Assembly: GCA_963713615.1 (NCBI GenBank)
Contig: CAVQMM010000001.1
Span: 3,328,001-3,392,000 of the forward strand
Reading direction: 5' to 3'
DNA: 64,000 nucleotides
Source of the DNA: an uncultured Chlamydiae bacterium
Lineage (GTDB): Bacteria; Chlamydiota; Chlamydiia; Chlamydiales; JAJFMA01
The notes under the pieces are model-generated. The model worked only from the letters and a program-made list of their open reading frames with translations. It was not told the DNA's origin and did no database searches. The position numbers and the translations under genes are program-made. Within the stretch, counting starts at the first letter, position 1, and the number at the start of each line of letters is the position of its first letter. Of this stretch, positions 5,009-52,924 are shown piece after piece.

Positions 5009-5169
5009 GGCCTTGTTCACCTTTACGGTCAGAATTTCGGTCGGACGAAAAAGGTCGGATGTCGTGGTTTGTGACGAGGGCATAGCGCCAGCTATGTCCG
5101 AGGAGCAAAACGCGACAGACGATCCTTTTGCAGTCGACCGAAATTCTGACCGCAAAGGTGAACAAGGCC
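5009..5169. mobile_element. MITE family A (161 bp), IS1595-like ends
   Basis: ~35-bp TIRs GGCCTTGTTCACCTTT(A/G)CGGTCAGAATTTCGGTCG; flanking 8-bp direct repeat GATAAAAG (5001-5008 and 5170-5177); further copies at 29960-30050 and 40654-40813. Confidence 0.9.
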
Positions 5170-13500: not shown

Positions 13501-15800
13501 CTGCTATTCCCCCTCCTGTGGAGCATCCCAAGGAGGAAGAGCAGCAGGAAGGATTGCTGATCAATTTCCGCGATGTTGCGATTACCGAATATATCCGCTT
13601 AGTGGCTCAACAGACCGGTAAGAATTTTATCTTTAATGATAAAGATCTTAACTTCAATATCACGGTCATTTCTGAACAGCCCACAACCATGGATAACCTT
13701 CTAGCGGCTCTGCTTCAGGAATTACGCATTCATGGCCTGCAGGTTCTTGAACAGGGTAATAACATCATTATCCATGCCAATGACAAGACCAAAGGACCCA
13801 CGCGCATTGTTAAAGGGGATCAAAAAGATACCCACGAGACCGCTCTTGTCACACGTGTGTTTCAGCTGGATAGCATCCCCGCCGACAAGATGAAAGCTGT
13901 CGTCACGCCGATGTTATCAGGTCAGGCATTAGTACAAGTGTTATCCGATACCAATAATTTGCTCATTACTGACTTTGGCGACAATGTTGAAAAGATTGCC
14001 GATCTGATTAATACCCTCGATCGTCCAACCACAGCCTTTCAGATTGGCCAATACGTAGGTAGAAACAACTTTATCGAAAACCTCATTCCTTTGGCGGAAG
14101 GGATCATCAGACCCTTTGCAGAAAAGCATGACGTTGTTTTCGTTCCACACCTCGCTACAAACAGTGTGTTTATCGTTTCTAGCCCAGTATTGGTCAAGCG
14201 TGCTATCGGTATCTTAGAACAACTGGATGCTCTTGAGGGGGCGACCAAAATCCTTACCCTCGAAGATCTTAGCAAGGGTGGGGCGGCTCTAACCAATCCT
14301 CAAGGCCAGGGCCCAGAGGAAATTATAGGTCCACAAAGGCCGAAGACTCAACAAGAAATCGACGAAGAAGCTCGCGCTAACGCCGAGTTGGAGAAAGCAC
14401 GTACCGGGACTTCTCCCGCAGCAAACTTACTGAAGGAAAAGGGTGAGGGCCACGAACATGAGGCCACCCCTACTAAAGTAGCTGAGCACAAGCTGCCAGT
14501 AGACCATATTACGCAGACGAAATTTTACATCCATAAGCTTCAATATCGAAAGGGAGATCAGCTCCAGTCTGCCCTACAGGCGATTGCAGACAGCCTACGT
14601 ATGAGCGAGACGGCGAACGTCGATCTTGTCAATGCCATCAATAGCGCCCAATGGATTGATTCTTCCAATTCCCTCGTAGTCACAGGTACTGCAGAATCCT
14701 TGGGTCGTGTGCAAGAATTGATCAATGAGATCGACATTCCTCTGAGACAAGTATTCCTCGAGATGTTGATCCTGGACACTACCATCACCGACTCGCTAAC
14801 TTTCAGCGTCGATTTTGGTTCGCAGTTCGGGGGGTATCAAAACGCCGGAGTCCAAGGATGGAGTGGAGATACACCAGCGACATCAACGTCGGCTAACCCT
14901 CTTTTTGCAGCTATCAAAAACTCAAGCCTAGGAGATGCTACCAATATTACTACCAGTACTGTTACTCCCTATATTATCAATGCCGCAGGCTTGATGGGTG
15001 TGACAGCTCCAGGTATGAACCTTGGCATCATCGGACGCCGTATTTTGAAGGGCGGCCAGTTCTTCAATACCGTGGGCGCGCTTGTCCAGGCCATCCATGG
15101 CGATACCCAATCGGATATTATTTTGAACCCAAAGATTATGGTAGAGGACAACCAATCTGCCGAAATCTTCGTGGGTGAAAGCCTGGCCTTCCAGACACAG
15201 AACGTTGTTAATGATTCTGGTAGTATCATCAGCCAGAACATTGAATTCCGCGATGTTGGTACCACTCTCAATGTTACGGTGCAAATCGGTAACAATGACA
15301 TCATCACTTTAGACATCAAGCAAGAGGTGAGTGCCACTATCAATACGACCTCAGGCGGTTCTGGCGGCGGAGGCTCACAGACCTCCACAAACCTTAACGC
15401 AGGTCCTGCAACTTCACAAAGTCGTACCATCACCCGTGTCCACGTGCCTAACGAATATTTCGTTGTGATTAGCGGTATGATCAGACAGGATAAAGGACGT
15501 GTCCGCGAGCAAATTCCTTGTATCGGTGGCTTACCATTCCTGGGAGCATTGAGTGCTCGAAAAGATAACACCGACAGTCGTCGAAACGTGATGATTTTCA
15601 TCAGGCCCCAAATTATTGATACAGATTGGGATTATGATGATGTAACGCGACGTCAGCAAAATGCTATGATCGATAAGGGCAGGAGAAAACCGCGTTGGAA
15701 GTATGAAGCTGATGAAGGCTTAGATTTCTTGAACTTGCCACGCATCAATGAACACTGCGAAGACGATAGCTATCTGCCTGGTTGGTGGGATGACCCTTAG
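7524..15800 (+). CDS. cdsC: Giant T3SS outer-membrane secretin (CdsC/SctC), 2758 aa, with ~2000-aa N-terminal extension
   Basis: From about residue 2010: INFRDVAITEYIRLV..NFIF..LNFNITVIS..LQELRIHGLQVLEQGNN (chlamydial CdsC-like N-domain), then LRQVFLEMLI, ILNPKIMVEDN, FRDVGTTL and IPCIGGLPFLG secretin motifs. Confidence 0.88.
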   Translation: MATRRRKKTYPSYKPILAKLWWASLPVFIAAQGWVFASPVVRGGNGDSCFSAEHFWPIAEDLQGFEGYPLSAIVDRTSPLVIHKTEREDVPVAQKPGLERADSKLDWFAQQKPSSERFRLPEGIARTCTEQQSSHFDLSDEPQPANYRPYLCRQELVQKIAAVASGLGSIASSDRRTGQCLSAFKNAPTAWGQLDYAYRECAPTCSLGTMGIPVFAGNGPNTTYSSGLATYGIASSSRYNVGNQEANRPKGSDLAHIPHFANAAEQQVSSAKIAEHRDGQWSAKSLLATKESCPECIYHEHRTPALLTSGTILSSIAEASHGSQTLSDVGPNEASALSPVFIVSAHRFESHPRSIPHLICEGCTTTYGQMAHEEQGTTGAWGIVAADRIDVAHRLAPFTTLPKMLHASCDLSSPSADDAFARALDGRETLAHKTNELVLGGGRENYDATDSIDQSHWARTAHLFHPLAAQRAVAAYAGQDNSAIWSLVAASPRLLLAAAKGLSCIGSECPLQLGRLTQGHPTAALAAFDGTDYRDISDIRHLSPFTTKDLAPTDPCLYCDKSAMGLTTFEDDTPEFLQTASRTFWKLARDTSFPGEDHHQDVARSTPDPRNWAVPVKAVAQLAAADNAALNQQHSSLQAAYEPQQTPNYWTVLDRLVEEHQGSQLAGARSHTGAPQQFSEQADQSSRLARESTFLGRGQGASRLDGDIDAFASSLQSLRQKRMPQNLETDSTAQAVIERQPLADQSIFALAYEGANPRFEGNTPLTRSAQVPSHAFDEKNLIAAARQVSQKIQHDEFLDALDLASSDNLVDANLGAVVAPDFGKLLFSAAADVLPPARSPAYDKPVVSADAVSPLAVRGTIRAKREAQEALALAMLADANQASLQYPEVDLHQLKFAQVLATFDADAAALLEANEKAELKAKEVAALAAIENAKDAPLQYGDTDLHQLKLAQTVSVLENNEAAALEANQATALAALEGKHAEALAALDAERMAALEAIADSKEGPLQYGETDLHQLKFAQAVAALDDNEVAAQEAKRAAVLEALEAKYAEALAALEAKRTVALEAIADAKVAPLQYGETDLHQLKLTQALAALQANEAAAPDANQTVLLAEMQAQQAAALEAIADATESPLQYRNVDLHQLQLAQALAVLDDNQAAVLQARQAKALEAFEARQALAVTEVKQVPQQTDHVLVKRQNASNDKAASVLPDFCKQWLAKAIENSSNSSSAAPASLTDHQIYSISPLSPDGAQKNNFPQKNSTLAIANVRQLDQVQPSDLLADVSFPQIIPELQFGGVLARVVTQKAADTVSDLLTLVQHSPSALSVMAASAGPTPTQLDPILSQTEAQALGLDIRGLGKDGAFSADEMQIAGRQHSGHVGEAHTAQDAANLGLLADAEEGTPNKLTATSMAGGAEALQTPNTVTGSLLCKNAVCSGSTYAPTDRIGETGKPIFDPSQLKQLNASVQPKDMDASQHKRHPDLWTLSPGPGSQTVTPHGKVPGGFDVASGHTGVSRPVELGDAASQVRSLRDGYHYYIGDGTTPSMSTSLDHLQISGALTQLPGTTPDDTFDGLAADFRTREKVGLYDTPAQSNQTVLSLAPSIDSAWGVDSRRVPKEQKIDSSVSLSSKETQGISNAIATVASTGKERHKFVKVVDVDAQRQMAKSAGKVTRAAEHSSIDSAARHRFAVEVVPHVDNSEPNNMHLLVGRASGPKSEISARTDSSFLIDVAYAADVAEVGAAREPASFLSVGAPSYPIAERDWDDSWLSNDSTLAVGAVNNDREDYDVDDNDYSVALAAPGGDPGIDPFGRKPTALGVRREGRLWDDNGPWFDSADDHAVSRTERQSPQMNRYEGRRPPDKEAGAPRYGANAMAADEATISNERELDGSFQKKNRTVETERYQREEDYGSVRSDSEADFSSAPLAEADDHVKQPDNSSAGTPNGEWQLAPPSRTLTASPEHVKPTVEAPTEELVAQQTLFDSGVPAAKPKSTEVPVKPAIPPPVEHPKEEEQQEGLLINFRDVAITEYIRLVAQQTGKNFIFNDKDLNFNITVISEQPTTMDNLLAALLQELRIHGLQVLEQGNNIIIHANDKTKGPTRIVKGDQKDTHETALVTRVFQLDSIPADKMKAVVTPMLSGQALVQVLSDTNNLLITDFGDNVEKIADLINTLDRPTTAFQIGQYVGRNNFIENLIPLAEGIIRPFAEKHDVVFVPHLATNSVFIVSSPVLVKRAIGILEQLDALEGATKILTLEDLSKGGAALTNPQGQGPEEIIGPQRPKTQQEIDEEARANAELEKARTGTSPAANLLKEKGEGHEHEATPTKVAEHKLPVDHITQTKFYIHKLQYRKGDQLQSALQAIADSLRMSETANVDLVNAINSAQWIDSSNSLVVTGTAESLGRVQELINEIDIPLRQVFLEMLILDTTITDSLTFSVDFGSQFGGYQNAGVQGWSGDTPATSTSANPLFAAIKNSSLGDATNITTSTVTPYIINAAGLMGVTAPGMNLGIIGRRILKGGQFFNTVGALVQAIHGDTQSDIILNPKIMVEDNQSAEIFVGESLAFQTQNVVNDSGSIISQNIEFRDVGTTLNVTVQIGNNDIITLDIKQEVSATINTTSGGSGGGGSQTSTNLNAGPATSQSRTITRVHVPNEYFVVISGMIRQDKGRVREQIPCIGGLPFLGALSARKDNTDSRRNVMIFIRPQIIDTDWDYDDVTRRQQNAMIDKGRRKPRWKYEADEGLDFLNLPRINEHCEDDSYLPGWWDDP

Positions 15801-17186: not shown

Positions 17187-20100
17187 ATGCTACATAGACA
17201 TGTTTTTATCGTTGCACTGTTTTGCTTCTTTGCCGTTGCAATGCAGGGAGAGGAACCGACGAATATTCTCCCTCACGCAGAGGTGAGCGGGGACTCCTCA
17301 ACCCTCGTAGCAGGGTGTGTGAATGTCATTACCGGTAGCTATAGCGATGCTCAGCTGGATTTTGTCCTCGTCGGTCCTGAGGCACTCCCGTTTCAGCGCT
17401 TTTACTGCTCTGCTGACTGGAAAGGAGGAAGCTTCAGAGATGGCTGGAATCACAACTACGCCTACGAAGGCAAAATCGATCATGAGAACGGCAAGTACTG
17501 GTACGCTAGGATTCCTGAAAATTCCGGCGGATCGATGCTGTACTTCAGTCATAACAAAGTAAAAGTTTGGGGCGAAAAAAAAGAACACGTTAGGTATGAC
17601 GACTTCATCCAATTCGACACCAATAAAGTTAAATTCCTAAAGGGGTTGACCAACATAGGCCACGGAGCCATCGGCGCGCGCACAAACCTGCGAAATCAAA
17701 CCGCTGATTGGAGGCCTAATCAAGAACAGTTTGTCGTTCACCAACCTGATGGAACGACAAGGTTCTACAAGGTAAAGAAGAAAGAACATACCCCCAAAAT
17801 TACGCATGAAAAGCGTCCTAGTGGCAACCAAATTCATTATCAATACAACAACAACGAACTCTCTAAGGTCACCGCCCTTGACGCTACAGGCAAAGTCACC
17901 TTTGGCTCGCTCTCCTTTACCCACACAAATTGGAAGGAGAGCTTTCCGGTTTTAACAGTTACCGGCAGTGATGGGCAAAACGTTCGGTACACCTTCCATA
18001 AAAGCAAACGTAGAAAAGAAAAAGAGGGCGATTGGCGCTTTTACGTCTACCACGTCAATAGGTCCACAGGTCCTCCAGAAGAGTATAAATACAGCTCTCC
18101 TGATAAGCTGCATAACGAGCAGATCATACAAAAAAGTCGACCTGAGGGACGCATTCAACAGATTCAATACTACCAACCGGGAGATAATTATGTCGGTGAT
18201 ATTCTTGTAAAATGCTCGGACGATCCTGAAAAAGATACCAGACCCGGTAAAGTTAGCCTCCTGAAAGCTCCCATGGGCCATGACGCGACTCTTCATATTA
18301 CTCACCGCTTCTTGTACAACCACGGCCCCAGTCACAATAACTTTAAGGAATATACATCTGGTATTGTTGACGTCTTGGATGCTGTGAATCACAAGGTGCG
18401 CTATTGCTTCTCTGGCAAGGACCGTATCACAGCCATAGAGCGATATACCGGCCAAAACGTCCCTAAAAAGTATAGCACTGAAAAATTCTACTGGGGAAGC
18501 CATAGAGACCAGGAGTGTAATTTGACGACCAAGGCTTTGCTCGATGCCAATGGTGTTGCACGGTCCTGTCGCTACCTAGAATATGACCAACACCACAATG
18601 TCATTGCTGAACATATTGTGGGAAATCTCAGAGGTAAAAATCCTGCCGGTCCCGCCTTGGATGATCTGGGAATTCCCCATTATAATGGCGGTGATCGCTA
18701 CACGATACAACGCTCCTACTATCCTCCGCAGGCTTTTAACTTGCTGAAGTCGGAATTGCTACCCAATGGACGTCTGACTGAATATAGATATTGGGGAAGT
18801 ACACCCAAACTCCAAGCTAAGCTTGTCAGTCACAATGGCCATACGATCGCACGTCAATTTCATGAATATGACCAGTTTGGTTCTCCTCTTAAAACAATCG
18901 TAGATGATGGAGAGGCGGCTACAAGTAATGAACTTCTAGGCGTCACTGTAAGGCGTATTACCTACTTGACTCCTCGAGTTCAAACACCCTGCATGGGGCT
19001 TCCTGAAGTCATAGCCGAACATTATTACGATACCCATACACGCACTGAACACCACCTCAGTGAGGTGGCTAATATCTACTCTAGAGAGGGACGCCTCACA
19101 GACCAGCATCACTTAGATGCTGATGACCTCTTGCGTTATTCCCTGCATTGGGAATATGACCCCATGGGCAATGTGACCTTGGAACGCAATGCCATTGGAC
19201 AAATCACTCAGCGCTGGTTTGATCCAAACGGTAACAAAATCAAGGAACAAGGCCCTTGTGAGCTTTACCACACTGAATATGCCTACGACTATTCTAATCG
19301 ACTAGTCTCTGAAAAGAAGGTCTGTACGGATGGTCAATGCTATTCACAGAGCTATCGCTATGACCTCTTAGGTAATCGCATTGCTTCCATCGATATCTTT
19401 GGTAACGAGACCAACTATGAGTACGATGAATTTCATCGATTGGTACGGACCACTCTACCACCTACAGTCGATGCCAACGGCAATCTTGTACGGCTCAAAA
19501 CCCATAGGAACTATGATATTGCTGGCAACGTCATCGCTGAAACAGATGTGATGGGCAACGTCACGCGCAAGGAATTTAATATTCGCGGACAACCCACGTC
19601 CATTCAATATCCTGATGGGACTAGCGAGCACTTCGAATATTACCTGGACGGCTCTCTCAAATGCAAAACCGCTCAAAATGGTACATCGACGCACTTTCAC
19701 TATGATGTCCTTGGCAACGTTATTCGCAAGGAGACCTTTTCCTCTGCCCAAGAGTTGCTTAGTACCACTACAGCGACCTATCGCGGCGCCTTGCTACTTT
19801 CCGAAACAGATGCTAATGGCAACAGCACCCACCATGCCTACGATGCCGCAGGAAGGCCTATTAAGGTGACCACGGAGATAGGTTGGAGTCGTTTCGAATA
19901 CGACAGTCTGGGCCGCAAGTGCAAAACCATTCAATGGATAGGCCCGAGCGAAGACGATGTTCAGGTATCATATGTAGAATACGATCTCCTCAATAGAGTG
20001 GTCGAAGAACGCTTGGAGGACCGCGCTGGCACTGTCTTCGATCGTAGTCTCTATGAATATGATTCAGCCGGTCATCGTTGCGCTGTCACCACCTTCTCTG

Positions 20101-22706
20101 ACCTAGGCCCCTGCACCACACGGACCTTCTACGATGGCATGGGAAAGGTCTACAAGATCATCGATGCAGAAGGTAACGAAACCATTATCCACGATGACTA
20201 TAGTCACCTGAATGCCCATGGACAGAAAGTTCTGTGCACGACCACCATTGATCCCCTTGGAAATGCGACGATTGCCACTTCAGATACTCTAGGACGTATT
20301 GTAAGTATTGTTCGCAAAGACGTTATGGGCCAGGAAATAGCCTGTGCCACGCAGCAGTTTGACGGCAACGGTCGACTCATTAGACGCGTGGATACCATTA
20401 AGGGGGCGAATGCCCCTGATCGTAACCTCATTACCGAACGTCAATATGATTCCGTCGGGCACCTGGTAGGTCTTTATGAGGCCGTGGGGACCCCTAAAGC
20501 CCGTCGAACCCTATACACCTATAACAAGGCTGGGGAGAAAGAGTTCGAATTTCTTGCAGATGGCGTGACCTTGCATTACGAATATGACTCTCAAGGGCGT
20601 CTCGCCTGTTACAGTAGCTCAGACCAAACAGTGCATTATCGCTATACCTATGACGCCAACAACAATGTTCTGGCAGTGGTCGATGAAGTTCAAGGAACGA
20701 CAACTTTGCGCAGTTATGATTGCGCAAACCGACTGACTCAGGAGATTCTCGGGAATGGCTTAAAGGTTCGCTATCAGTATGACGGCATAGGGCGTATGAC
20801 GCGAATGGGACTGCCAGATGAAAGTGGAGTCACCTATACCTACAATGCTGCCCATCTCGAGGAGGTGAGCCGTATAGACCCCACTGCCCAAAAGCTCTAC
20901 AGCCATGCTTACCTAACCCATGATGCTTCGGGACATGTGACCGCGTCTCAGCTGATCAAAAATGCAGGAGACATCACCTATACCAGGGATAAGCTCTCTC
21001 GCTTGCACCAGATGAAATCGTTGCATTTTCAAGAAGACATTCCTCTTGATGGCTACGACGCTGTAGGCAATCTGTTGACCAAGCATAGGCGCGATATCTT
21101 TGGAGAAAACACGTGCAGATATGCCTATGATGATCTCTATCAGCTAGTGCGCGAAGAAGGCATGTCCAATCATGCCTACGCCTATGATTCGCTTAACAAT
21201 CGTCTTAGTAAGGACGACGCCCATTGTGAAATCGATGAAATCAATCAGCTGCTTAGACAAGGTGATGACACCTACACCTATGATGCGCGGGGGAATCGCA
21301 CAGCCCATAGCGCAATTCAGTACGCCTACGATGCCCTAGGCAGGCTCACAGAAGTAAGGAGAGAAGAAGGACGTTGGTCTTACCAGTATGATGCCTTCAA
21401 TCGACGCATCAGCAAAACTCGCTTCAGCTTGTCTGACGAAATATTAAGTGTTGAACGGTATCTTTATAGTGGACATTTGGAGCTTGGAGCATTCGAAGAA
21501 AATGGCATTCTTCTGCAATTTCGTATGCTTGGTAAGGGGCTAGGGGCAGAGATTGGAGCAGCTGTTGCGATCGAAATTGGAAATGAACTTTTTGCGCCGT
21601 TGCACGACCATCAGGGAAGTGTTGTTGCCCTTCTGGATCCAGCGAGCGGCAACCCTGTGGAGGTGTATCGCTATACTGCCTTCGGAGAAGAGAACTGCTT
21701 TGTGAAGGGGTCTACGGGAGACTGGACGCACACTCTATCGATTAATCCTTGGCGGTTTTCTAGCAAGAGATACGATCCTGAATCTGGATTGATCAACTTT
21801 GGACGTCGTTATTTTGATCCAAAGGTAGGGCGGTGGGCGACACCAGATCCCAAGGGTTATGACGAAGGCCCTAATCTTTATGCTTATCTATGCAATAGGC
21901 CCCTGACATTTTACGATTTGTATGGCCTTCAAGTTACATCCGAAGGGTACAATTTTCAATTTGCTGACACCTATGGAGGGGCATATACAATAGGAGTTTA
22001 TCATGGGCTTTTTCATCCCGTCGACACATGTAGCAAGTGGACCGATTGTGCCTGGGAGGTCGGCTCTGCAGCACATAATCGAGATTGCAGCCACATAGCT
22101 GGTCGCATGAATGAGCTAGGGTTTCGAGGTGTGGCTTTAGCGGGTTTTGAGACCGCCGGCGAAGTCTTTGGAGCCTATATTACGCTTCTTCCCGTTGTAG
22201 AGATAATGAAAGCCCTAGCTTCTACTGTAGCCTTTGAGTACTGTTATGCAGCATATCGATCCGCATCGTCCTTATTCCGCTCGGAAGCGATTGTGACCGG
22301 AGAAGAGCTCTTAGTCACTCAAAGCGAACGTGCCATCGGTGCCGCTCTTGAGGAGCTAGTTATTGAAGAGGCTGCTTTAGCCGGAGGTCAGGGCGACGTT
22401 CAGGTGGTGGAGCGCGTAATTAATGAGACATTACAAGGAAGAGGAATGCTCACTAGCCAGTATCAACTTTCGCCAACCGAAGCACTGGACGCTGCTGAGT
22501 TATTTTTGGGACCTGGATATCGTGAAATTGGGCAAAGTGGAAGTGGTGTTTTTAGAAGTGTTGATGGTTTTAAGCAATTTCGTATGGACACCAATTCAAT
22601 GTTGGGACAACATAAGCCATGGGTTCCCCATGTACATTTTGAGATATTTACCCCAACGAATCTAAGAAGGCCATACGTATCCAACCACGTTCCATTTACA
22701 AACTAA
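17187..22706 (+). CDS. Rhs/YD-repeat protein with N-terminal signal peptide and C-terminal toxin domain
   Basis: Many YD repeats; Rhs core PWRFSSKRYDPESGLINFGRRYFDP..GRW.TPDP; cleavage-like PLTFYDLYGL; His-rich C-terminus QFRMD...HKPWVPHVHF...NHVPF. Confidence 0.92.
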   Translation: MLHRHVFIVALFCFFAVAMQGEEPTNILPHAEVSGDSSTLVAGCVNVITGSYSDAQLDFVLVGPEALPFQRFYCSADWKGGSFRDGWNHNYAYEGKIDHENGKYWYARIPENSGGSMLYFSHNKVKVWGEKKEHVRYDDFIQFDTNKVKFLKGLTNIGHGAIGARTNLRNQTADWRPNQEQFVVHQPDGTTRFYKVKKKEHTPKITHEKRPSGNQIHYQYNNNELSKVTALDATGKVTFGSLSFTHTNWKESFPVLTVTGSDGQNVRYTFHKSKRRKEKEGDWRFYVYHVNRSTGPPEEYKYSSPDKLHNEQIIQKSRPEGRIQQIQYYQPGDNYVGDILVKCSDDPEKDTRPGKVSLLKAPMGHDATLHITHRFLYNHGPSHNNFKEYTSGIVDVLDAVNHKVRYCFSGKDRITAIERYTGQNVPKKYSTEKFYWGSHRDQECNLTTKALLDANGVARSCRYLEYDQHHNVIAEHIVGNLRGKNPAGPALDDLGIPHYNGGDRYTIQRSYYPPQAFNLLKSELLPNGRLTEYRYWGSTPKLQAKLVSHNGHTIARQFHEYDQFGSPLKTIVDDGEAATSNELLGVTVRRITYLTPRVQTPCMGLPEVIAEHYYDTHTRTEHHLSEVANIYSREGRLTDQHHLDADDLLRYSLHWEYDPMGNVTLERNAIGQITQRWFDPNGNKIKEQGPCELYHTEYAYDYSNRLVSEKKVCTDGQCYSQSYRYDLLGNRIASIDIFGNETNYEYDEFHRLVRTTLPPTVDANGNLVRLKTHRNYDIAGNVIAETDVMGNVTRKEFNIRGQPTSIQYPDGTSEHFEYYLDGSLKCKTAQNGTSTHFHYDVLGNVIRKETFSSAQELLSTTTATYRGALLLSETDANGNSTHHAYDAAGRPIKVTTEIGWSRFEYDSLGRKCKTIQWIGPSEDDVQVSYVEYDLLNRVVEERLEDRAGTVFDRSLYEYDSAGHRCAVTTFSDLGPCTTRTFYDGMGKVYKIIDAEGNETIIHDDYSHLNAHGQKVLCTTTIDPLGNATIATSDTLGRIVSIVRKDVMGQEIACATQQFDGNGRLIRRVDTIKGANAPDRNLITERQYDSVGHLVGLYEAVGTPKARRTLYTYNKAGEKEFEFLADGVTLHYEYDSQGRLACYSSSDQTVHYRYTYDANNNVLAVVDEVQGTTTLRSYDCANRLTQEILGNGLKVRYQYDGIGRMTRMGLPDESGVTYTYNAAHLEEVSRIDPTAQKLYSHAYLTHDASGHVTASQLIKNAGDITYTRDKLSRLHQMKSLHFQEDIPLDGYDAVGNLLTKHRRDIFGENTCRYAYDDLYQLVREEGMSNHAYAYDSLNNRLSKDDAHCEIDEINQLLRQGDDTYTYDARGNRTAHSAIQYAYDALGRLTEVRREEGRWSYQYDAFNRRISKTRFSLSDEILSVERYLYSGHLELGAFEENGILLQFRMLGKGLGAEIGAAVAIEIGNELFAPLHDHQGSVVALLDPASGNPVEVYRYTAFGEENCFVKGSTGDWTHTLSINPWRFSSKRYDPESGLINFGRRYFDPKVGRWATPDPKGYDEGPNLYAYLCNRPLTFYDLYGLQVTSEGYNFQFADTYGGAYTIGVYHGLFHPVDTCSKWTDCAWEVGSAAHNRDCSHIAGRMNELGFRGVALAGFETAGEVFGAYITLLPVVEIMKALASTVAFEYCYAAYRSASSLFRSEAIVTGEELLVTQSERAIGAALEELVIEEAALAGGQGDVQVVERVINETLQGRGMLTSQYQLSPTEALDAAELFLGPGYREIGQSGSGVFRSVDGFKQFRMDTNSMLGQHKPWVPHVHFEIFTPTNLRRPYVSNHVPFTN

Positions 22707-23097: not shown

Positions 23098-23301
23098 TTG
23101 TGAGAAGGCGATTCTGGAGAGCTTAAGTGGTATGGCACTATCCAGTCTGGAAAGACGTAAGCGTCAATGCTAGCCATATTTCTATCATTGAGGTAATCGG
23201 CTAATGTGCCTTCCAAGTCAACAGTCAAAAGTGGGCGTGTATTAGGCCTATCTATCTTTCGAGACGCCTAAAAGCACTTTTTTTAAAAGTATGGAAGGCT
23301 T

Positions 23302-23616
23302 ATGAAAAAGAAATATACCTTAAAGCAACGCAAACAATTGTTACATGAATGGCGAGTTAGTGGTAAAAGTGCTCCAAAATGGTGCCAAGAGATGGGAATT
23401 TCCTATACAACCCTTGCTCATTGGCGACAAACACTGCCAGTCCGCAAACAAAAAAAATGCCAACGCAAATCTCCTTCCTTTGTAGAACTGGTCGAATCGC
23501 CAAAACCTGCGCAAAACTACATTGAGGTTGCCTGCGCTGACGTCGTTATTCGACTATTCCCGGACTTTGATGATCAGGTCTTTCTACGCTGCCTTCAAAC
23601 ATTAAAACGATTATAA
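23302..23616 (+). CDS. tnpA: IS66 TnpA-like HTH protein (extra copy, convergent with tnpC)
   Basis: WRVSGKSAPKWCQEMGISYTTLAHW...FVEL...IEV pattern of IS66 TnpA. Confidence 0.8.
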   Translation: MKKKYTLKQRKQLLHEWRVSGKSAPKWCQEMGISYTTLAHWRQTLPVRKQKKCQRKSPSFVELVESPKPAQNYIEVACADVVIRLFPDFDDQVFLRCLQTLKRL

Positions 23617-23648
23617 TGAATGCCCCTTGGCTGGCCCTGAATGTTTTT

Positions 23649-25229
23649 TTAGTGGGATACAGCCGATTTGAAATTCTCAAAAGAATTGCCAGAAGGGTCC
23701 TGCTGTGATTTAGCCCATTGATCTGGTAGTAGTTCGTAAAGTTTTTGTGAGCTGTGACTCATTAGTCTACGCATGACATCTTCAAGATAGTCTCGAGGGT
23801 TTATTCCCAGATTCCGGCAGGTTTGAACTAAAGACAGTATTACCGCTGCGGCTTCGCCCCCTTCTTCATTGCCAATAAATAGCCAATTCTTGCGGCCAAT
23901 TGCCAATGGACGAACTGCACGTTCGGCTACATTGTTATCTAGGCGTGCGTATGGATGGTTTAAGTAGTTTTTTAGATGAGGAATCAGACCTAAAAAATAC
24001 CCTAGAGCTTCTCGAAATTTGGATTTAGGCAGGACTTTTCCTTCGGATAGACGTTTTTTGATGGCGTTGATTAGCTCGTCTATAATCGGCCCCTCTTTCA
24101 GCTGCCGTATGCGTAATCGCTCTTCTTCAGAGCGTGCCCAAGCAATTCTTTCTAGCATAAAGAGGTAGCGAATCTTTCGTAAAACCCATTTGCGAAATGG
24201 GGGATCTCCAGTTTCCGCCTCTATGAATTTTCTGCGAATATGCGACCAGCAGGGACATAAAATGATTTTCTTCTTATTTGCCAGATCAATATAAGCCCCA
24301 TATTTATCTGAATGTACCACTCCGGTATACCCTGCAAGTATTTCCGAGGCATTTTCATGTTTGCGGTTCGTCCGAAAATTGTAGACTCTATAGGCTGGGT
24401 TCGTATGTTTGCCCCCAACCAACACCCACATGTAAGCTTGATGGACTTTGCCCTTTCCCGGAGAAAGCATATCCACAGGACTTTCATCGATAAACACATT
24501 TCCGCTTTGCAAAATTTGCTTTGTTAGTTCCTCATGAAGAGGTTTTAATGCCTGTCCACAGCGTACAACCCAATTACAAAGGACTTGCCTGCTGATCCCA
24601 ATTCCTTCCCTAGCAAGAATTTCTGAAATTCTATAGAGCGGTAGATGGTCGGCAAATTTCTTTGTTAAAATGTCTGCTAAAAAGCTCTCATCTGCTTGAC
24701 AACGCGTAAGCAAACCTTCTGGAAGGGGAGCAGTTCGGATTCCACCTTCACTGTCTTGAGGAAGAGCATATTTTGGCCGGATGATTTCTTTGATAAAATA
24801 GCTTCCTGGCTTATGAGCCAGTTTTTGACTGACTTCTTCACCGATCTTGATCAGTTGCTGACCAGTCTCAGGACAGATCTTTTCAGATTCCGGTAGATCG
24901 ATTATTTGACGTTCTACGGGTAGGTCTGGGGGCAGTGTGATTTTGTCTTTACCAGTACGCTTGAGTTGTCGGCGCTCATGAGCAGGAATGGTTGTTTTCT
25001 TTTCCGGTTTCACATTCTTAGGTGGTTCAAAACCGGGTAAGAAGGGTTGACTTTCGTTGACTGGGTCTACAAATTTTTCGGCACGTTGTCCAAAAACCTG
25101 CCTTTTTAGCCAATCCAATTGCTCCTTGAGATAAGTCAGCTCATTCTGTAGCTGCTCGATTATGCTGTCCTTACGAGCGCTTTCGGCAATCAGATCTTGG
25201 AGAGTACGTGTTGTAGGTGCCATATGCAC
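23649..25229 (-). CDS. tnpC: IS66 DDE transposase
   Basis: FGQRAEK, KKFADHLPLYR, IDESP, HSDKY, CWSHIRRKF and DNNVAERAVRP..GRKNWLF motifs. Confidence 0.95.
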   Translation of the reverse strand: MHMAPTTRTLQDLIAESARKDSIIEQLQNELTYLKEQLDWLKRQVFGQRAEKFVDPVNESQPFLPGFEPPKNVKPEKKTTIPAHERRQLKRTGKDKITLPPDLPVERQIIDLPESEKICPETGQQLIKIGEEVSQKLAHKPGSYFIKEIIRPKYALPQDSEGGIRTAPLPEGLLTRCQADESFLADILTKKFADHLPLYRISEILAREGIGISRQVLCNWVVRCGQALKPLHEELTKQILQSGNVFIDESPVDMLSPGKGKVHQAYMWVLVGGKHTNPAYRVYNFRTNRKHENASEILAGYTGVVHSDKYGAYIDLANKKKIILCPCWSHIRRKFIEAETGDPPFRKWVLRKIRYLFMLERIAWARSEEERLRIRQLKEGPIIDELINAIKKRLSEGKVLPKSKFREALGYFLGLIPHLKNYLNHPYARLDNNVAERAVRPLAIGRKNWLFIGNEEGGEAAAVILSLVQTCRNLGINPRDYLEDVMRRLMSHSSQKLYELLPDQWAKSQQDPSGNSFENFKSAVSH

Positions 25230-25277
25230 ATCATTATACTCAAAATATGAATTTATGTGAATGCAAAAAATGCATTT

Positions 25278-25613
25278 TCACACTATCTTGAAACGCTTTT
25301 GCAGTCGTTTCGGAACGACGCCTTCCAACATCATCAAAAAGGTCCTTCGATCAACTAAGGCCTCTTCCAATTTTCTCTTAGGGAAGCTTCCCCGCTCAAG
25401 ACGTTTATACCAGATGGCAAAACCATCACTATCCCAATAGAGTATTTTAATGCGATCTCTTCGACGGTTAAGAAAGGAAAAGAAGGCGCCACTAATCAGC
25501 TCATCACTGCCGAAAGCTCTCTCAACTAAGGCGCAGAGGCCTTCAAAACCCTTTCTTAAATCGGTTGTCTCACGAAAAATGAAGATTCGCGCATTCCCTG
25601 GATAAGTCAGCAT
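25278..25613 (-). CDS. tnpB: IS66 accessory protein TnpB
   Basis: TDLRKGFEGL, LNRRRDRIKILYWD, YKRLERGSF; TGATG overlap with tnpA. Confidence 0.93.
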   Translation of the reverse strand: MLTYPGNARIFIFRETTDLRKGFEGLCALVERAFGSDELISGAFFSFLNRRRDRIKILYWDSDGFAIWYKRLERGSFPKRKLEEALVDRRTFLMMLEGVVPKRLQKRFKIV

Positions 25614-25927
25614 CAAGACTCCTCAAACAGTCTAAGACACATCAGAAGAGCTGTGCGGTCATAATCTTTTGCCAGAGATAGTTTGCCTCCTCGAAAATTC
25701 ATCTGCAGCCAATCGGGTATAGACCAGCCCTCTGGTAACTCCTTACATGGTTTATGCACAGGCTGATTTTTCGACTGATTGCTTAAAAATCGTTTTTTCC
25801 AATAATTGAACGTGGCATAAGAAAGACTTTGCTCTCGACACCAAGAGGAGGCGCTCTTTCCGCTTTTAGTCCACTCCTGGATTGTTTTTGCCCACTGCTC
25901 CGCACGAACTTTATCTCTCTCTTTCAT
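25613..25927 (-). CDS. tnpA: IS66 accessory protein TnpA
   Basis: WTKSGKSASSWCREQSLSYATFNYW; start moved to MKERDK (GGAGG upstream). Confidence 0.85.
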   Translation of the reverse strand: MKERDKVRAEQWAKTIQEWTKSGKSASSWCREQSLSYATFNYWKKRFLSNQSKNQPVHKPCKELPEGWSIPDWLQMNFRGGKLSLAKDYDRTALLMCLRLFEES

Positions 25928-26032
25928 CAGACCTACCTCCAAAGTGTTACCTAACTTTGAAGGCACATTAGCTGATTACATCAACGACCGAAATATGGCT
26001 AGCATTGACGCTTACGGAAAGACAGGCTTTTC

Positions 26033-26332
26033 TCCCTTCCCAGGCCCGAAGGGTCGATATTGTAACAGGCCATGGCATCGCCATGGTATATGCCAGGAAG
26101 GGATTTCGCAGTCTGAAGGACTGCTACAAGACGCCAGTTTACAAACACCATTTATGCATGCGCTTTATGGCAGCCCTACAGGCTGCTAAAACCGTTTTGG
26201 CATATACCATGGCGATGCCATGGCCTGTTGCAATATCGACCCTTCGGGCCTGGGAAGGGAATGACTCTCTCTTCACCGGCATCCGATTTTCAGGAAATTG
26301 ACTTCGGAAAATCGGACTTCTGCAATTACCTC
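26033..26332. repeat. Family D inverted pair (63-bp arms at 26033-26095 and 26198-26260) plus family K terminus
   Basis: 62/63 identical inverted arms TCCCTTCCCAGGCCCGAAGGGTCGATATTG..GGCATCGCCATGGTATATGCCA; region ends TTCTGCAATTACCTC, as at 40.2 and 63.6 kb. Confidence 0.88.
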
Positions 26333-38556: not shown

Positions 38557-39924
38557 ATGGAGGCAGTGCCTGAGCAAGCATTTCATGGGGTGGATTCCAC
38601 GGCCCTGGTTGGCATCATTCATTCAGGGGATATCCAGCTTGATCCAGAAGGGATCAAGGGTTTGACATATGGATTGAAGGTCTTACGAGCCGCTGCTGGC
38701 TTGGCGAATATGTCAGAGGCTTATGAAAGCGTCAAAGCCATGGTGTTAGCAGTTCGCTGTGTAAGTCTTCTTTCTGTTAATCCCAACCAGCTTCTCAATA
38801 AAATTGGCAGCTCTTTTACGGATAGCTCTTCCTCAATTTCAGATTTCATCATCAACTGCAAAAAACTTACCGATGTTCTTGTAAAGCCTCCAAAAATGAT
38901 TCTTGCCTTGGCAAAATATGGCATGGTTTCTCCATCAGTTACGACGTTTCTCACGCCAGGCCTAATGTCAAGGCTAGCGCTTACGTCAATACGTGCTAAA
39001 CAGGCCTGTGGCATTGTCGCTGTCATTTCGCTGTGGGATCACTTGAAAGCTCCTAAGCTGGATAAACTGGGTATAGCGACTTCTTTCTCTCTGGTGGTCT
39101 TAGCGGTAGCGGCGTCCTTCGGCTGGACGGAATGGCGCCTTGGTGCCGAAATTGTCAGCAATTTATTGGGTCTTATTTCAGTATGGAACAATAAGATCGG
39201 TGAATCAGTTATGGTCATAGCTCCGGAGAAATCGGATGCGACAAAAGCCATGGAGAACGCTTTCCATACCGCCCATGAAGAAATCAAAGCTCTCCTCACG
39301 GATCAATTCGCGACCATGCTCGCACGGGTCTCAACTTATCCCGACGAGCAAATTAGTCATCTGTTAAAGGGCGATTTGATCCAGCAGCAAGCTCTATTTG
39401 AAAGCTATCTTTCCGATGCAATAAATGAATACGCACTGCAGGAATTGCTCAATACTTACCAAGATACATTCCTGCCAGATATCATCCAGCAGGGCCTATT
39501 AGATGCATCAGCTCTGACAGAAGTGCAGGAGCTGCATGTGAAGGGTCAATCGAGCCTTGCCCATGTCGATGAGCGTGAAAACATGGCTTATAAAGTTCTA
39601 GAGGGTCATCTGCAGTTTTTGCGACAACATGCAGCAACAATCCAAGACTGGTGCAACAGGGCATCATCCCAAGAGCTAAGCAGTGAAAAAGGTCAATTTG
39701 CTGTCGCAGTTTTAAGTTCCTTGAAGGATATTCAACAGGCAGTGACCACCCTTTCTGATGAGCTTTGGTTGCCAAAAGGTTCTCATTCTATGGAGTCGCA
39801 TCCTATTGAGCAGATGTCCATTGCCAAACGTGAGGGACTCTTAGAGTATATTGATCGCATCGCCGGAACTGATGCGCGGGGATTTATTGCCGAGAATGTA
39901 TTTCATGTCTTGCAAGATGAGTAG
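38557..39924 (+). CDS. Hypothetical protein with central hydrophobic hairpin and helical C-terminus
   Basis: 455-aa ORF with its own AT-rich upstream region; no recognised domain. Confidence 0.75.
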   Translation: MEAVPEQAFHGVDSTALVGIIHSGDIQLDPEGIKGLTYGLKVLRAAAGLANMSEAYESVKAMVLAVRCVSLLSVNPNQLLNKIGSSFTDSSSSISDFIINCKKLTDVLVKPPKMILALAKYGMVSPSVTTFLTPGLMSRLALTSIRAKQACGIVAVISLWDHLKAPKLDKLGIATSFSLVVLAVAASFGWTEWRLGAEIVSNLLGLISVWNNKIGESVMVIAPEKSDATKAMENAFHTAHEEIKALLTDQFATMLARVSTYPDEQISHLLKGDLIQQQALFESYLSDAINEYALQELLNTYQDTFLPDIIQQGLLDASALTEVQELHVKGQSSLAHVDERENMAYKVLEGHLQFLRQHAATIQDWCNRASSQELSSEKGQFAVAVLSSLKDIQQAVTTLSDELWLPKGSHSMESHPIEQMSIAKREGLLEYIDRIAGTDARGFIAENVFHVLQDE

Positions 39925-39936
39925 AGCGAGGCGTTC

Positions 39937-40192
39937 GTGGGGCTTTTTAGGATTTTCACCGCCGAGGCGCAGAGACACCTCACATAGCAGATAGGAGAGA
40001 GAGGATGCGGAATGAATGTCCAGTTACTGCTGGCGCTGTACAAAATCCAGTCTAAGGGTTTCCATATGAATACGATCCTGTCGAGCCCTTAGACAGAATT
40101 TTACCCAAGGCCCCACAAACGGCACATTCTCTCCGAATCTTCTCTCTCCTATCTTGGTGTGTCTCCGCACCTCGGCGGTAAAAATTCCTAAA
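39937..40192. repeat. Family C/H palindrome without IS (relative of the 34-36.7 kb locus)
   Basis: GTGGGGCTTTTTAGGATTTT..CCGCCGAG arm, CAGTTACT, CCAGTCTAAGGG..CCCTTAGACAG and CACAAACGGCACATTCTCTCC in the same order. Confidence 0.82.
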
Positions 40193-40322
40193 GTCCTCAT
40201 GAGGTAATTGCAGAAGTTCGATTCTCCGAAGTCAATTTCCTGAAAATCGGATGCCGGTGAAGAGAGAGTCATTCCCTTCCCAGGCCCGAAGGGTCGATAT
40301 TGCAACAGGCCATGGCATCGCC

Positions 40323-40633
40323 ACATAGGCCTCAACCTAAGCCTAACAATCGTATCTCGGCGCGCAGCGCTTTGGAGTGCGGTCGCTTGCGACCGCTTTG
40401 GGTTCCTTGCGACGGTCGTGTGCAACGGCATCACTATAATTCCCTAAGGGTAAAATAGTTAGTACATGCAGCCTTCGACGAATCCATACAATGCCGTTTA
40501 GCATTGCCGTCCCAAGGAACGAAAAGCGGTCGCAAGCGACCGCACTCCAAAGCGCTGCGCGCCGAGATACGATTGTGAAGTCCTAAGTCATTGAGATATA
40601 AGCTCAAAAGACCTGTTAGGTTGAGGCCTATGT
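40323..40633. mobile_element. 311-bp cassette G (TIR ACATAGGCCTCAACCTAA) containing a family F REP-like pair
   Basis: Perfect 18-bp TIR; flanked by direct repeat GGCATCGCC; near-identical copy at 63202-63512. Confidence 0.85.
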
Positions 40634-40653
40634 GGCATCGCCATGGTATATGC

Positions 40654-40813
40654 GGCCTTATTCACCTTTGCGGTCAGTTTTCGGTCGACTGCAAAAGGAT
40701 CGTCTGTCGCGTTTTGCTCCTCGGACATAGCTGGCGCTATGCCCTCGTCACAAACCACGACATCCGACCTTTTTCGTCCGACCGAAATTCTGACCGTAAA
40801 GGTGAACAAGGCC
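40654..40813. mobile_element. MITE family A, full copy in reverse orientation
   Basis: Matches the reverse complement of 5009-5169; no TSD visible. Confidence 0.88.
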
Positions 40814-41077
40814 CAGAATCGCCTTCTCGCAAAAAAAAGGTAACCTTTTTTCCTAAGAATCGATCCTTAAGGGCTCAAATAATTTTGCAATTACCTCTCA
40901 GGGTCCTTTCCCGGGTAACGAAAAAATCCGTTCAATTGTTTACAAAAACATCATTTTCTATTATTAAATAATTCAGTCCACGCAATTATTGAATTAAAAT
41001 TAAAATAAAATTATGCTATAATGGATGTAGGAAGAATACCAACTCACATTAATCAAGAGATAGACGACGCGTTGCAT

Positions 41078-41093: not shown

Positions 41094-41150
41094 TAGCTGA
41101 TTGGTAAGCGTCAAATGGAAAAACAAGTTTTGTGAGTGAAGGAGTCGATT

Positions 41151-43442
41151 ATGGTTTCCCCATTAGCTCCAAATGCTTCAACACCCCTTACGCAGACTGA
41201 GCTGCTTGCTGAACAGCATCTGAATCTTTCAGGTGCCCTGGATAATATCCTTACAGCAAAATCAGACAATGACATTAGCATAAGCTCTTACCTTGAAGTC
41301 CAATCGTCAGCACACTTGGACCTTGACCAAACGCTCTATAATATAGAATTTACGGACTCCACGCTGGCAAATCGTTTTGCTAGTGATGGACTAGACCAAA
41401 TGGACTCATTAATTCAGGAGTATAACGCTCTTTATGGTGAGTTTCAGGCGAGCCAGGTCAATACAGCGGCAACGGATCCAGCCACTACGAATCTGAATAC
41501 ATATGCTACTAGTACAAATACAAGTATTTCTCATACTCAGACGAGCGCAACCACTTATAATAATGCAGTAGGCCAGTATAATTCAGCTGCGAGTACTTTT
41601 AATAACGAGGAGACGGCGGGTTTTTCCAGTCCGGCAGCTGAGGATGCGGCGATTAATGTATACAATCTTGCTGTAACAAACTACAATAATGCAGCCAATA
41701 CATACAACAATTCTGTTAACACAAGCAATGTATCTATTACCACCTATAATGCTCAAGTAGATAACTATAATGCGACAACCTTGGTGCAAACTAATAATGA
41801 TATTGCTGCTCAAAACGCGGCAAATCCCACACAGACACCGTTACCACCACAACCTCCAACGCCTGATATGGCTCCAATTCCTACCGTAGGCACCCTCTCA
41901 ACGCTACCATTGGTCCCTGTGACAGGTCCTGTTCCTGTAGTATCTACCGCTCCCACACCACCATTGATTCCGGTCTACATTCTTCCAAGTGCGTTAAATT
42001 TCTACAAAAATTATTTAGTTCCTTCCTTTTTGCCTTCGCAATTACCAGCTTTAGTCTATCTTACAACAATTCAAAGACTGTTTAACCAAATTTTAGATCA
42101 AAGTAATCCTCTACCAACAACGATCAAGCCTAATGCTGGTACTCAAGATATTACTCGACCTCGTGCCTATATCAATCGTGACGAAACAAACTCTATATCT
42201 ACTGGGGGAAGCGGAGTTGGTGGGGTATCAACTAGTGTATTGGCTATGGGTTTAGACAATGCGGAGATGGACAGTATTCTGGGAGAAGGGGTTGTAAAAC
42301 AAATGTTCGACAATACTACTGTCCCAGCTCCACTTCAGGAACGATTGACAGCACTCGTATCTACATTATTCATACGCAGTTCTGTAGCTGGATCTCTACC
42401 AGCTGTGCAAACATTTCTGGGATCTGATCTTTCCCAAATTGAGAATCAATCGGGTGCGGGTCGTGCGGCGAGTTCGCTTGGGACCACTGCGGCGATTCTG
42501 GGATTATTACGCGGAAATGCTCTACAACAGCCAATCTCGACGATCATTAACACAACCACGCAGTTGCAAAGCCTCAATGATACTGACAAGCAAAATTTAC
42601 AATCGGGTTTACAAGCAATCACCTCAACAGCCTTACTTAAGCTTGGTCTGGGTTCTTTAGTGCATGAAACGCAAACCCCCGGCCTATTGAATGTGATGGA
42701 TGCAGCAGTGATCTCAGGAACCCCGCAAAATGCCAATTCTCGCTTTGGTGTTGTGGTGACGAGTTTAGATAATCTAAAGGCTGCATTTGGTTCTCAGGAG
42801 GTTTCTAGCTTACTTAGCCAGTACCTTGCTAACCAGATCGTCAATGCTCCAGGAGTGAGTCCCACCCAAGTCAATGATCTAGCCAATCAAATAGCGACCA
42901 ATGTGACAACCGAACCCACCCCTGCGACGCCTGCAGCCCTACAGCAAATTATTCAACAAAGCCTCGCTTCCACGCTGGGATCCAACGTCTCTTCCGCTCT
43001 CGTCCAGCAGCTCACTGGTCAGGTTTCCTTGTTCGCCATAGCCGGTGCAACACGTAGTGATCTTTTACAAAATCTCATTTCTTCAGCTGGGCCGGCTAAT
43101 GCAGAGAATTTAACAGATCAAACGATTGTGCGACTTTTTGGATTCTCGCCGAGCTTTGGTGAAGGTGAAATCATTCAACGTCCTAGTGAAGAAGCTACAG
43201 CGCTTCCTGCTGTGACTTCGTTAGCAGATAGTGCTCAGGCTTTGAATAACTTAGACGCCAGCAAGGCTGGGCAAATGGTGGCCGACAACTTTAACACGAG
43301 TAGGGCTCATCAGGATGTGCAAAACTTAGATGCATTTTTCCGTGAGGTGATTGACCCAGGCCAAATGCTGGTCGGTTTGATGTATGAAGGACATCGCGGA
43401 ACAGCCTTTAAACGTGGAAAAACAGATATTGATTTAGCTTAA
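41151..43442 (+). CDS. Candidate T3SS-secreted protein (Asn/Thr-rich heptads, Pro-rich linker)
   Basis: AAGGAG RBS; YNNAV..YN heptads; Pro-rich segment; heads the translocon region. Confidence 0.75.
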   Translation: MVSPLAPNASTPLTQTELLAEQHLNLSGALDNILTAKSDNDISISSYLEVQSSAHLDLDQTLYNIEFTDSTLANRFASDGLDQMDSLIQEYNALYGEFQASQVNTAATDPATTNLNTYATSTNTSISHTQTSATTYNNAVGQYNSAASTFNNEETAGFSSPAAEDAAINVYNLAVTNYNNAANTYNNSVNTSNVSITTYNAQVDNYNATTLVQTNNDIAAQNAANPTQTPLPPQPPTPDMAPIPTVGTLSTLPLVPVTGPVPVVSTAPTPPLIPVYILPSALNFYKNYLVPSFLPSQLPALVYLTTIQRLFNQILDQSNPLPTTIKPNAGTQDITRPRAYINRDETNSISTGGSGVGGVSTSVLAMGLDNAEMDSILGEGVVKQMFDNTTVPAPLQERLTALVSTLFIRSSVAGSLPAVQTFLGSDLSQIENQSGAGRAASSLGTTAAILGLLRGNALQQPISTIINTTTQLQSLNDTDKQNLQSGLQAITSTALLKLGLGSLVHETQTPGLLNVMDAAVISGTPQNANSRFGVVVTSLDNLKAAFGSQEVSSLLSQYLANQIVNAPGVSPTQVNDLANQIATNVTTEPTPATPAALQQIIQQSLASTLGSNVSSALVQQLTGQVSLFAIAGATRSDLLQNLISSAGPANAENLTDQTIVRLFGFSPSFGEGEIIQRPSEEATALPAVTSLADSAQALNNLDASKAGQMVADNFNTSRAHQDVQNLDAFFREVIDPGQMLVGLMYEGHRGTAFKRGKTDIDLA

Positions 43443-52671: not shown

Positions 52672-52904
52672 TCACAATCCTTGCTCGGCGCGCTTTGGAG
52701 TGAGTGCGGTCGCTTGCAACCGCTTTTCGTTTCTTGTGACGGTCGCGTGAAATGGCATCACGATCATTCGCTAAAGGCAAAATAGTTAGTACATGCAGCC
52801 TAACCGAATCCGTACAATGCCGTTTAGCACGACCGTCGCAAGGAAGGCAAAGCGGTCGCAAGCGACCGTACTCAAAAGCGCTGTGCGCCGAGAGACGATT
52901 GTGA
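52672..52904. repeat. Family F REP-like pair, stand-alone diverged copy
   Basis: GAGTGCGGTCGCTTGC.ACCGCTTT...AAAGCGGTCGCAAGCGACCG, with a spacer homologous to the 40.35 and 63.23 kb copies but no G TIRs. Confidence 0.88.
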
Positions 52905-52924
52905 GGTTTCAGGAAGAGAGGAGT

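Follow-up and report, generated by a model that had tools for sequence, protein, structure and literature searches.

Gene-less mini-transposons with REP-type hairpin cargo, nested at an intergenic locus of a chlamydial genome

Anatomy of the intergenic stack

The DNA analyzed here (the window) is a stretch of 64,000 nucleotides, G000:C1:3328001-3392000, from an uncultured Chlamydiae bacterium whose genome (G000) amounts to 3.97 Mb in 3 contigs. About 11% of this genome lies within 20-mers present at least five times. The window contains a chlamydial-type type III secretion cluster, and it also encodes two PEP-CTERM proteins and one RhoGAP-domain protein (932-2492 and 30059-32440), found here in a chlamydia-like genome, an RHS protein (17187-22706) from a family with 17 near-identical members in G000, and a secretin of 2758 amino acids (7524-15800) with 204-bp repeats within a very long N-terminal extension. 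On either side of the stack of modules K, D, G, F, and A is a gene that gave no Pfam hit (38557-39924 to the left and 41136-43442 to the right). Two open reading frames at 40024-40434 and 40591-40971 overlap the repeats and have no Pfam hit, and they were taken as spurious.

The outermost layer is MITE K, inserted in a target repeat whose left half occupies 40193-40200; the 4-bp duplication is inexact, the copies at 40197-40200 and 40898-40901 being equal at 3 of 4 bases. All the layers inside it are described on the plus strand. The left end and left backbone of K (40201-40272), an end with 163 left-pointing and 165 right-pointing matches genome-wide, lead into the left arm of the REP doublet D (40273-40323), the cargo of K, which matches repeats beside a Y1 gene (G000:C1:3243412). 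At the center of the D palindrome lies the first copy (40313-40323) of the 11-bp target-site duplication of MITE G. This element (40324-40632) has 17-bp terminal inverted repeats of the IS4/IS231 type and is 309 bp long rather than the 311 bp given in the initial annotation, which had placed it correctly. Its cargo is the REPIN F (40346-40577), with arms at 40346-40431 and 40491-40576 that match REPs on both sides of a RAYT gene (G000:C1:3256780); the center of F is the site used by an IS66 family and its stem the site used by an IS1634 family and by G', a sister of G. The second copy of the G duplication (40633-40643) is followed by the remainder of the left D arm (40644-40653), until a deletion at which MITE A (160 bp, 40654-40813) stands without a duplication in place of 215 bp. 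The missing DNA corresponds to the D spacer, the right D arm, and ca. 50 bp of K, the figure being the 752-bp standard form minus the 697 bp present plus the 160 bp of A. The right backbone and right end of K (40814-40897) close the stack, and the adjoining element E (39946-40191) is an inverted doublet of the repeat that flanks a GxxExxY gene (G000:C1:1855174).

Several of these layers recur elsewhere in the window. As first reported, A stands alone at 5009-5168 (minus strand, 8-bp duplication) and F at 52672-52909 (plus strand), the latter with the spacer type seen in the cargo of G, no G ends, and 87 to 88% identity. The module read initially as an empty D at 26033 turned out to be a second K(D) copy without G (26033-26332, minus strand), with its left end at 26332 and its right backbone cut by an IS66 element (23157-26016, 8-bp duplication). 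A truncated K(D(G(F))) copy lies at 63180-63635 (minus strand); it is cut at 63180 by a further palindromic repeat family (63040-63170), which is also found as cargo in G-ended and K-ended elements (G000:C1:3554954 and 1755746). The statement that the window lacks a matching transposase fails, as two IS66 elements are present, although the copy at 34126-36420 (plus strand) does not mobilize K, G, or A. This copy belongs to the F-targeting family, the other 17 members of which sit in F; it is the only one of 18 placed in an E element instead, which it splits (33952-36753) with an 8-bp duplication.

Across G000, the locus gave 1,413 BLAST matches, whose ends accumulate at module borders, with ca. 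120 to 430 matches per module and 1 for the unique flanks. The modules are nested where they were first described and repeated throughout the genome. We mapped 538 module clusters, comprising K(D), K(D(G(F))), solitary A, free F, tandem K(D) arrays, and IS-filled forms. The whole composite was found in none of the 60 relatives examined; one of them (G002) has only A-like and K-ended elements.

Collapse of repeats during assembly, a possibility raised in the initial annotation, was assessed with short-read contigs. Module sequence was present in those of all four public runs used (X1, X2, X3, and X5), with pieces that bridge the K-D, D-G, and F-G junctions and cross G-F; no piece bridged either A junction at this locus with 31 bases on each side. 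Loose contig ends continued alternatively into an empty D arm or into IS66 at the center of F, and the depth of the modules was far above that of the unique flanks. The stack is not an assembly artifact.

MITE K and its cargo D

Pairing of K ends in G000 gave 114 end pairs, with main lengths of 429 to 434 bp (G-free) and 751 to 754 bp (G-filled). An exact 4-bp duplication flanked 39 of the 98 full-size paired elements (shuffled mean of 6.4, with a maximum of 16), and more than half of the K copies, like that of the locus described here, are without an exact one. Of 235 K flanks, 187 had a 3-base motif at a constant distance, compared to a background of 2.5%, and 150 had at least two short-repeat units, compared to 4.8% of noncoding positions. 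The same target repeats also flank, in inverted order, two four-helix-bundle genes (TIGR02436 and TIGR04258). Based on a crude ORF set, 31 of 85 gaps were convergent for K versus 287 of 1,411 overall.

Every K left arm (118 of 118) leads into D, and always at the same position. Among 294 D arms, 265 were classified by filter as K-type, and 249 of these had the K backbone alongside; six of the remaining 16 really belong to the enzyme locus. The eight RAYT-type D arms were, with one exception, in the array at the Y1 gene. Since K-type arms adjoin the K backbone and RAYT-type arms cluster at the gene, D is a cargo; as a dispersed free doublet, it is nearly absent outside K and the enzyme locus. 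G000 has six Y1 genes. The D arms match a doublet array downstream of one of them (L003), on one side only; this single-copy gene scores 83 bits with PF01797, 21.9 with the RAYT model NF047646 (cutoff, 80), and 57.3 with the IS200 model (cutoff, 55). Three more Y1 genes (L002, L004, and L005) are each flanked by their own inverted repeats, and the REP of L002 also occurs inside a 246-bp K-ended element.

K ends are not tied to D alone. Among the less common K-ended elements, some have no cargo (66 and 84 bp) and others hold F or a third REP, so that at least three different cargos (D, F, and the third REP) occur between K ends in G000. Empty K-ended elements of 56 to 84 bp exist, but the main K backbone was never found without cargo. 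K(D) also forms head-to-tail arrays of 5, 5, 9, and 6 units (G000:C1:476514-478848, 1173286-1175476, 2273505-2280496, and 2600805-2603406, respectively), with a period of ca. 455 to 475 bp and an identical 43-bp spacer common to three of them. Another K(D) copy (G000:C1:1137410-1138825) holds ca. 1 kb with a 151-amino-acid frame that resembles a group II intron maturase fragment. Three K composites at unrelated loci (G000:C1:309695, 656695, and 3645703) share flanking sequence over ca. 120 bp on the left and 41 bp on the right, which suggests a still larger mobile unit around K; in these three, G is found on opposite arms.

Outside G000, K ends are rare. Of 251 Chlamydiota genomes, 6 have K ends, counting G000, and none of the 6 had the reversed pattern; beyond G000, the ends lie mostly in the same repeats, with 4-bp duplications. 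In one of these genomes (G255), the K-ended MITEs carry a different REPIN, 89% identical to the REPIN beside that genome's own Y1 gene; this is an independent repeat of the cargo design. Searches for K ends elsewhere yielded chance hits only on plasmids, 51 matches in viruses, nearly all within ORFs, single chance-level hits in 9 of 151 genomes of another phylum, and one single match in 5 further genomes.

No transposase for K was found in G000 by end scan or protein searches. PF13751 was present in none of five genomes, and a protein search for a K partner was negative in all five genomes holding K ends and gave no viral loci. The nearest candidates are DUF772 elements of ca. 1.57 kb in four other Chlamydiota genomes (G116, G445, G199, and G163), whose ends match that of K at 14 of 15 bases, with no exact match, and which made a 4-bp duplication, as K does, in the two copies read (L401 and L406). 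Their transposases score 74 to 109 bits with NF033551 (cutoff, 270) and 36 to 77 bits with NF033581 (cutoff, 140), that is, below the cutoffs for both IS1182 and IS5, with IS1182 as the best model. Three other candidates were rejected: the IS701 copies of G000 have different ends, ISAs1 has a partly similar end yet makes a 10-bp duplication, and an IS1182 gene (L403), which resembled a partner, has its own end inside a K-type element. In genome G440, a DUF772 element with K-like ends and a 5-bp duplication has the same flanks at two loci (L399 and L400) and lies inside a larger inverted-repeat unit, probably another nested system.

MITEs G and A, cargo F, and insertion sequences in the hairpins

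Among 103 end pairs of G, 60 measured 309 bp. An 11-bp duplication was present in 59 of the 103, nearly all of them forms of 305 to 309 bp, and a 10-bp one in 3; the other pairs are mostly interrupted copies, sister elements, and chance pairings. The D 11-mer adjoins 181 of 202 G ends, and F adjoins 23 of 27 ends of G'. The palindromic core of the target occurs 1,309 times in G000, with only 382 occurrences in a D or G context, and therefore the choice of target goes beyond the core. Insertions were found in both D arms and in both orientations (13, 13, 5, and 3 copies), the sequence of the duplication follows three host D variants, and one G copy is located outside D. The 89 G-filled arms do not represent 89 events, given that inversion of D and duplication of entire composites can also occur; the arm and orientation classes together with the target variants set a floor of about five separate G insertions. 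Divergence among 26 G copies was 0.3% (6 haplotypes), compared to 8% among their 26 different K hosts, i.e., G was ca. 27 times less diverged.

The G ends (window 40324-40340) fit the end signature of the IS231 subgroup at all eight specified positions, as judged by eye. Elements of 1.41 to 1.52 kb with G-like ends are found in other genomes (L192 and L176). Their ends differ from those of G in 1 or 2 of 17 bases, and they encode IS4 transposases (NF033592, 202 and 226 bits; cutoff, 115) in which we read the YREK spacing. A candidate parent of G was found in a Parachlamydiaceae genome, with 9-bp duplications in the three copies tallied, while in G000 neither tblastn with the L192 and L176 proteins nor an end scan gave an IS4 parent. 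Within G000, G ends occur with two different cargos, and no empty G was found; elsewhere, several short elements with G-like ends also carry hairpin cargo (by eye).

The arms of F match three REPs on each side, in inverted order, of a single-copy gene (L006) that passes the RAYT model (NF047646, 83.7 bits; cutoff, 80). F is not confined to MITEs. Among 410 arms, 202 follow a G-type end and 22 a K end, whereas the other 186 have no MITE end within 90 bases, so that F occurs both free and as cargo. It thus also exists as dispersed free inverted doublets, like the copy at 52672, as is typical of a REPIN. At one locus, the F doublet has collapsed within G. Both D and F are predicted to fold into long hairpins (a prediction without shuffle control). 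The search for enzymes flanked by the module repeats, proposed in the initial annotation, was fruitful in G000 for the RAYT/Y1 and GxxExxY types. A second GxxExxY gene (L008, G000:C1:1921790) has inverted arrays of an 87-bp repeat on its two sides, for which 50 to 175 matches were counted genome-wide.

Three autonomous IS families were also found to use these hairpins. In the IS66 family, 17 of 18 copies lie at the center of the F palindrome, with 8-bp duplications, and 13 of the 18 are in an F within G, giving five layers. The IS1634 family (8 members) enters the F stem at one position (6 of 6 copies examined), and the 9 copies of an IS110 family all interrupt D at a single position, the native array holding one of these copies. 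All three break the REP at one position, which is the type 1 criterion of Tobes and Pareja. Control families inspected by eye were rarely or never in D or F: 0 of 9 for ISAs1, 0 of 7 for IS607, and 0 of 7 for IS21 (upstream side only). A second IS1634 family gave 1 of 9, in the F spacer, and a third IS66 family (12 members; downstream side only) gave 1 of 4 examined.

A behaves as a conventional MITE, with terminal inverted repeats, a length of 160 bp, a fixed-length duplication of 8 bp in 109 of 128 copies, and a resident parent with the same ends. This parent (L300, G000:C1:1035800-1037682) measures 1,883 bp, has an 8-bp duplication, and encodes a 559-amino-acid DUF6399 protein without any NCBIfam hit, which looks like a transposase family with 8-bp duplications and no assigned IS family. 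A second L300 copy is split by IS701, and a related family of ca. 64% identity has its own ends. As a targeted element, A was discarded: 10 of 128 copies touch K, D, G, or F (12.5% expected), and 42 of 128 touch any repeat (33% expected).

Formation of the stack and relation to known systems

The locus consists of three gene-less mini-transposons (K, G, and A), and K and G each carry a fixed hairpin cargo. We think it probable that they form a chain, in which the cargo hairpins of K and G are insertion sites and the spread of one element likely supplies the targets of the next. D and F would have started as REPINs of two resident Y1/RAYT genes, and each may have entered a small empty MITE once, through a Y1 enzyme or by recombination. 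A transposase related to IS1182/IS5 would then likely have copied K, and an IS4 enzyme of the IS231 type would likely have copied G afterward; neither is now in the assembly, through loss or incomplete assembly. Because no transposase for either element was found in G000, we infer the mobilization of K and G from their ends and duplications, and the capture step itself was not seen, given that neither an empty main K backbone nor an empty G was found. The inserting elements presumably recognize the hairpin structure. In the order of events, the target repeat would come first, followed by K(D), by G(F), and then by IS66 and IS1634, while A could have arrived at any time. At this locus, A lacks a duplication and replaces 215 bp, for which adjacent deletion or recombination between two A copies is the likely cause.

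The initial annotation went further, proposing that each of K, D, G, F, and A is a free family and that they continually insert into each other's palindromes. The existence of free F copies agrees with it, and the varied cargos, at least three between K ends and two between G ends in G000, indicate more than one capture. However, D is entered at a single position from each of the 118 K left arms, and no empty G was found, which marks D and F as fixed cargo and not as layers that repeatedly insert into the next; D is nearly absent outside K and the enzyme locus, and A is unbiased. This model is largely refuted, and we regard it in its full form as very improbable. What stands is that several nested nonautonomous families serve as intergenic landing pads and that targeted insertion recurs for K into its target repeat, for G into D, and for three autonomous IS into D or F; A shows no such preference. 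At the other extreme, a single fixed composite amplified as a unit, or produced by the assembly, would fit the fact that no single length is more frequent than 752 bp (17 of 114 end pairs), as well as the tandem arrays of K(D). It is hardly conceivable given the four arm/orientation configurations, the 37 G-free against 34 G-filled copies, the locus-specific duplications, and the junctions in independent short-read contigs.

A more serious alternative is that G entered D only a few times and then spread through gene conversion and D inversion, with entire K(D(G(F))) units being copied as well. Exact K duplications are equally frequent in G-filled (12 of 34) and G-free (13 of 37) copies, D inversion explains the opposite arms of G in the three copies with the same flanks, and the collapsed F doublet shows that recombination is active. 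Nevertheless, each of the two main D variants contains both inversion classes, the third variant has its own duplication, one G lies outside D, and G is far less diverged than its hosts; moreover, the F spacer was inverted within G in 0 of 34 copies (3 unreadable). We therefore judge this alternative unlikely and retain the chain of insertions into cargo hairpins. A wider extension of this chain is conceivable, though we hold it as tentative: REPIN cargo would be selected and would have evolved repeatedly, as an aid to spread or persistence or as a decoy for IS4, IS66, IS110, and IS1634; the chain would be self-assembling and rooted in the repeats of four-helix-bundle genes; DDE transposases rather than RAYT would determine the number of REPINs; and the IS66 member would be site specific for a REP hairpin.

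Parts of this arrangement have precedents. REP-targeting IS described by Tobes and Pareja (2006, PMC1525189) include ISRm22 (IS4), ISPpu9, ISPpu10, ISPa11, and ISRm19 (IS110), and ISPsy8; in the portions of that paper considered here, every copy interrupts its REP at a single point close to the palindrome axis, and IS4 and IS110 are involved, as in G000. By comparison with those portions, the REP target here is the cargo of a MITE, G is nonautonomous and brings a second REPIN, and IS66 and IS1634 join; the word IS66 does not occur in that paper. The ssr9 module of ISPpu9 (PMC12288879, in the part drawn on) is likewise a nonautonomous module on the same target, and the part of PMC12888890 considered has nothing on REP targeting. 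The IS231 subgroup, in the excerpts used of De Palmenaer et al. (2008, PMC2266710), resembles G in its end signature, its 10- to 12-bp duplication, and its preference for palindromic targets, and has a YREK motif that is also found in the full elements related to G; in contrast, G is gene-less, carries a REPIN, and has no parent in the G000 assembly. IS1272, of the IS1182 family (PMC5678879, in part), prefers inverted-repeat targets, as K does, but replaces the repeat without a duplication, whereas K makes 4-bp duplications; K-like ends occur on DUF772 transposases for which IS1182 is the best model, with scores below its cutoff.

As in the REPIN-RAYT systems of Bertels and Rainey (10.1101/2021.07.10.451892), judged from the sections used, inverted REP doublets here match the repeats beside a single-copy Y1/RAYT gene and form tandem arrays. 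Those sections set slow, RAYT-dependent REPINs apart from fast MITEs, while in G000 most D copies and about half of the F arms are inside DDE-type MITEs. Di Nocera et al. (2013, PMC3733652) found REP dimers regularly within a longer palindrome, with no empty palindrome, which resembles our observations, and the mosaics of several repeat families have a counterpart in the Neisseria intergenic mosaic elements (PMC3733652 and PMC3184786, both in part). Unlike here, the parts of PMC3733652 considered do not describe the enclosing palindromes as duplication-making MITEs, nor do they follow a series of later insertions. REP-targeting IS, including IS4 and IS110, are thus known; in the literature searched, which covered few subscription journals, we did not find the cargo-as-target arrangement described, that is, REPIN-carrying MITEs as targets for further elements, nor any paper on a REP-targeting IS66.

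Nothing here indicates a host function. The stack links mobile-DNA ecology to the repeats that surround four-helix-bundle and GxxExxY genes, and its matched enzyme-target pairs allow tests of how four unrelated transposase families, IS66 among them, recognize hairpins. With ca. 250 D arms in K versus ca. 14 at the enzyme gene, the abundance of a REP or REPIN can stem from hitchhiking in MITEs, which bears on estimates of REPIN populations that assume RAYT-driven copying.
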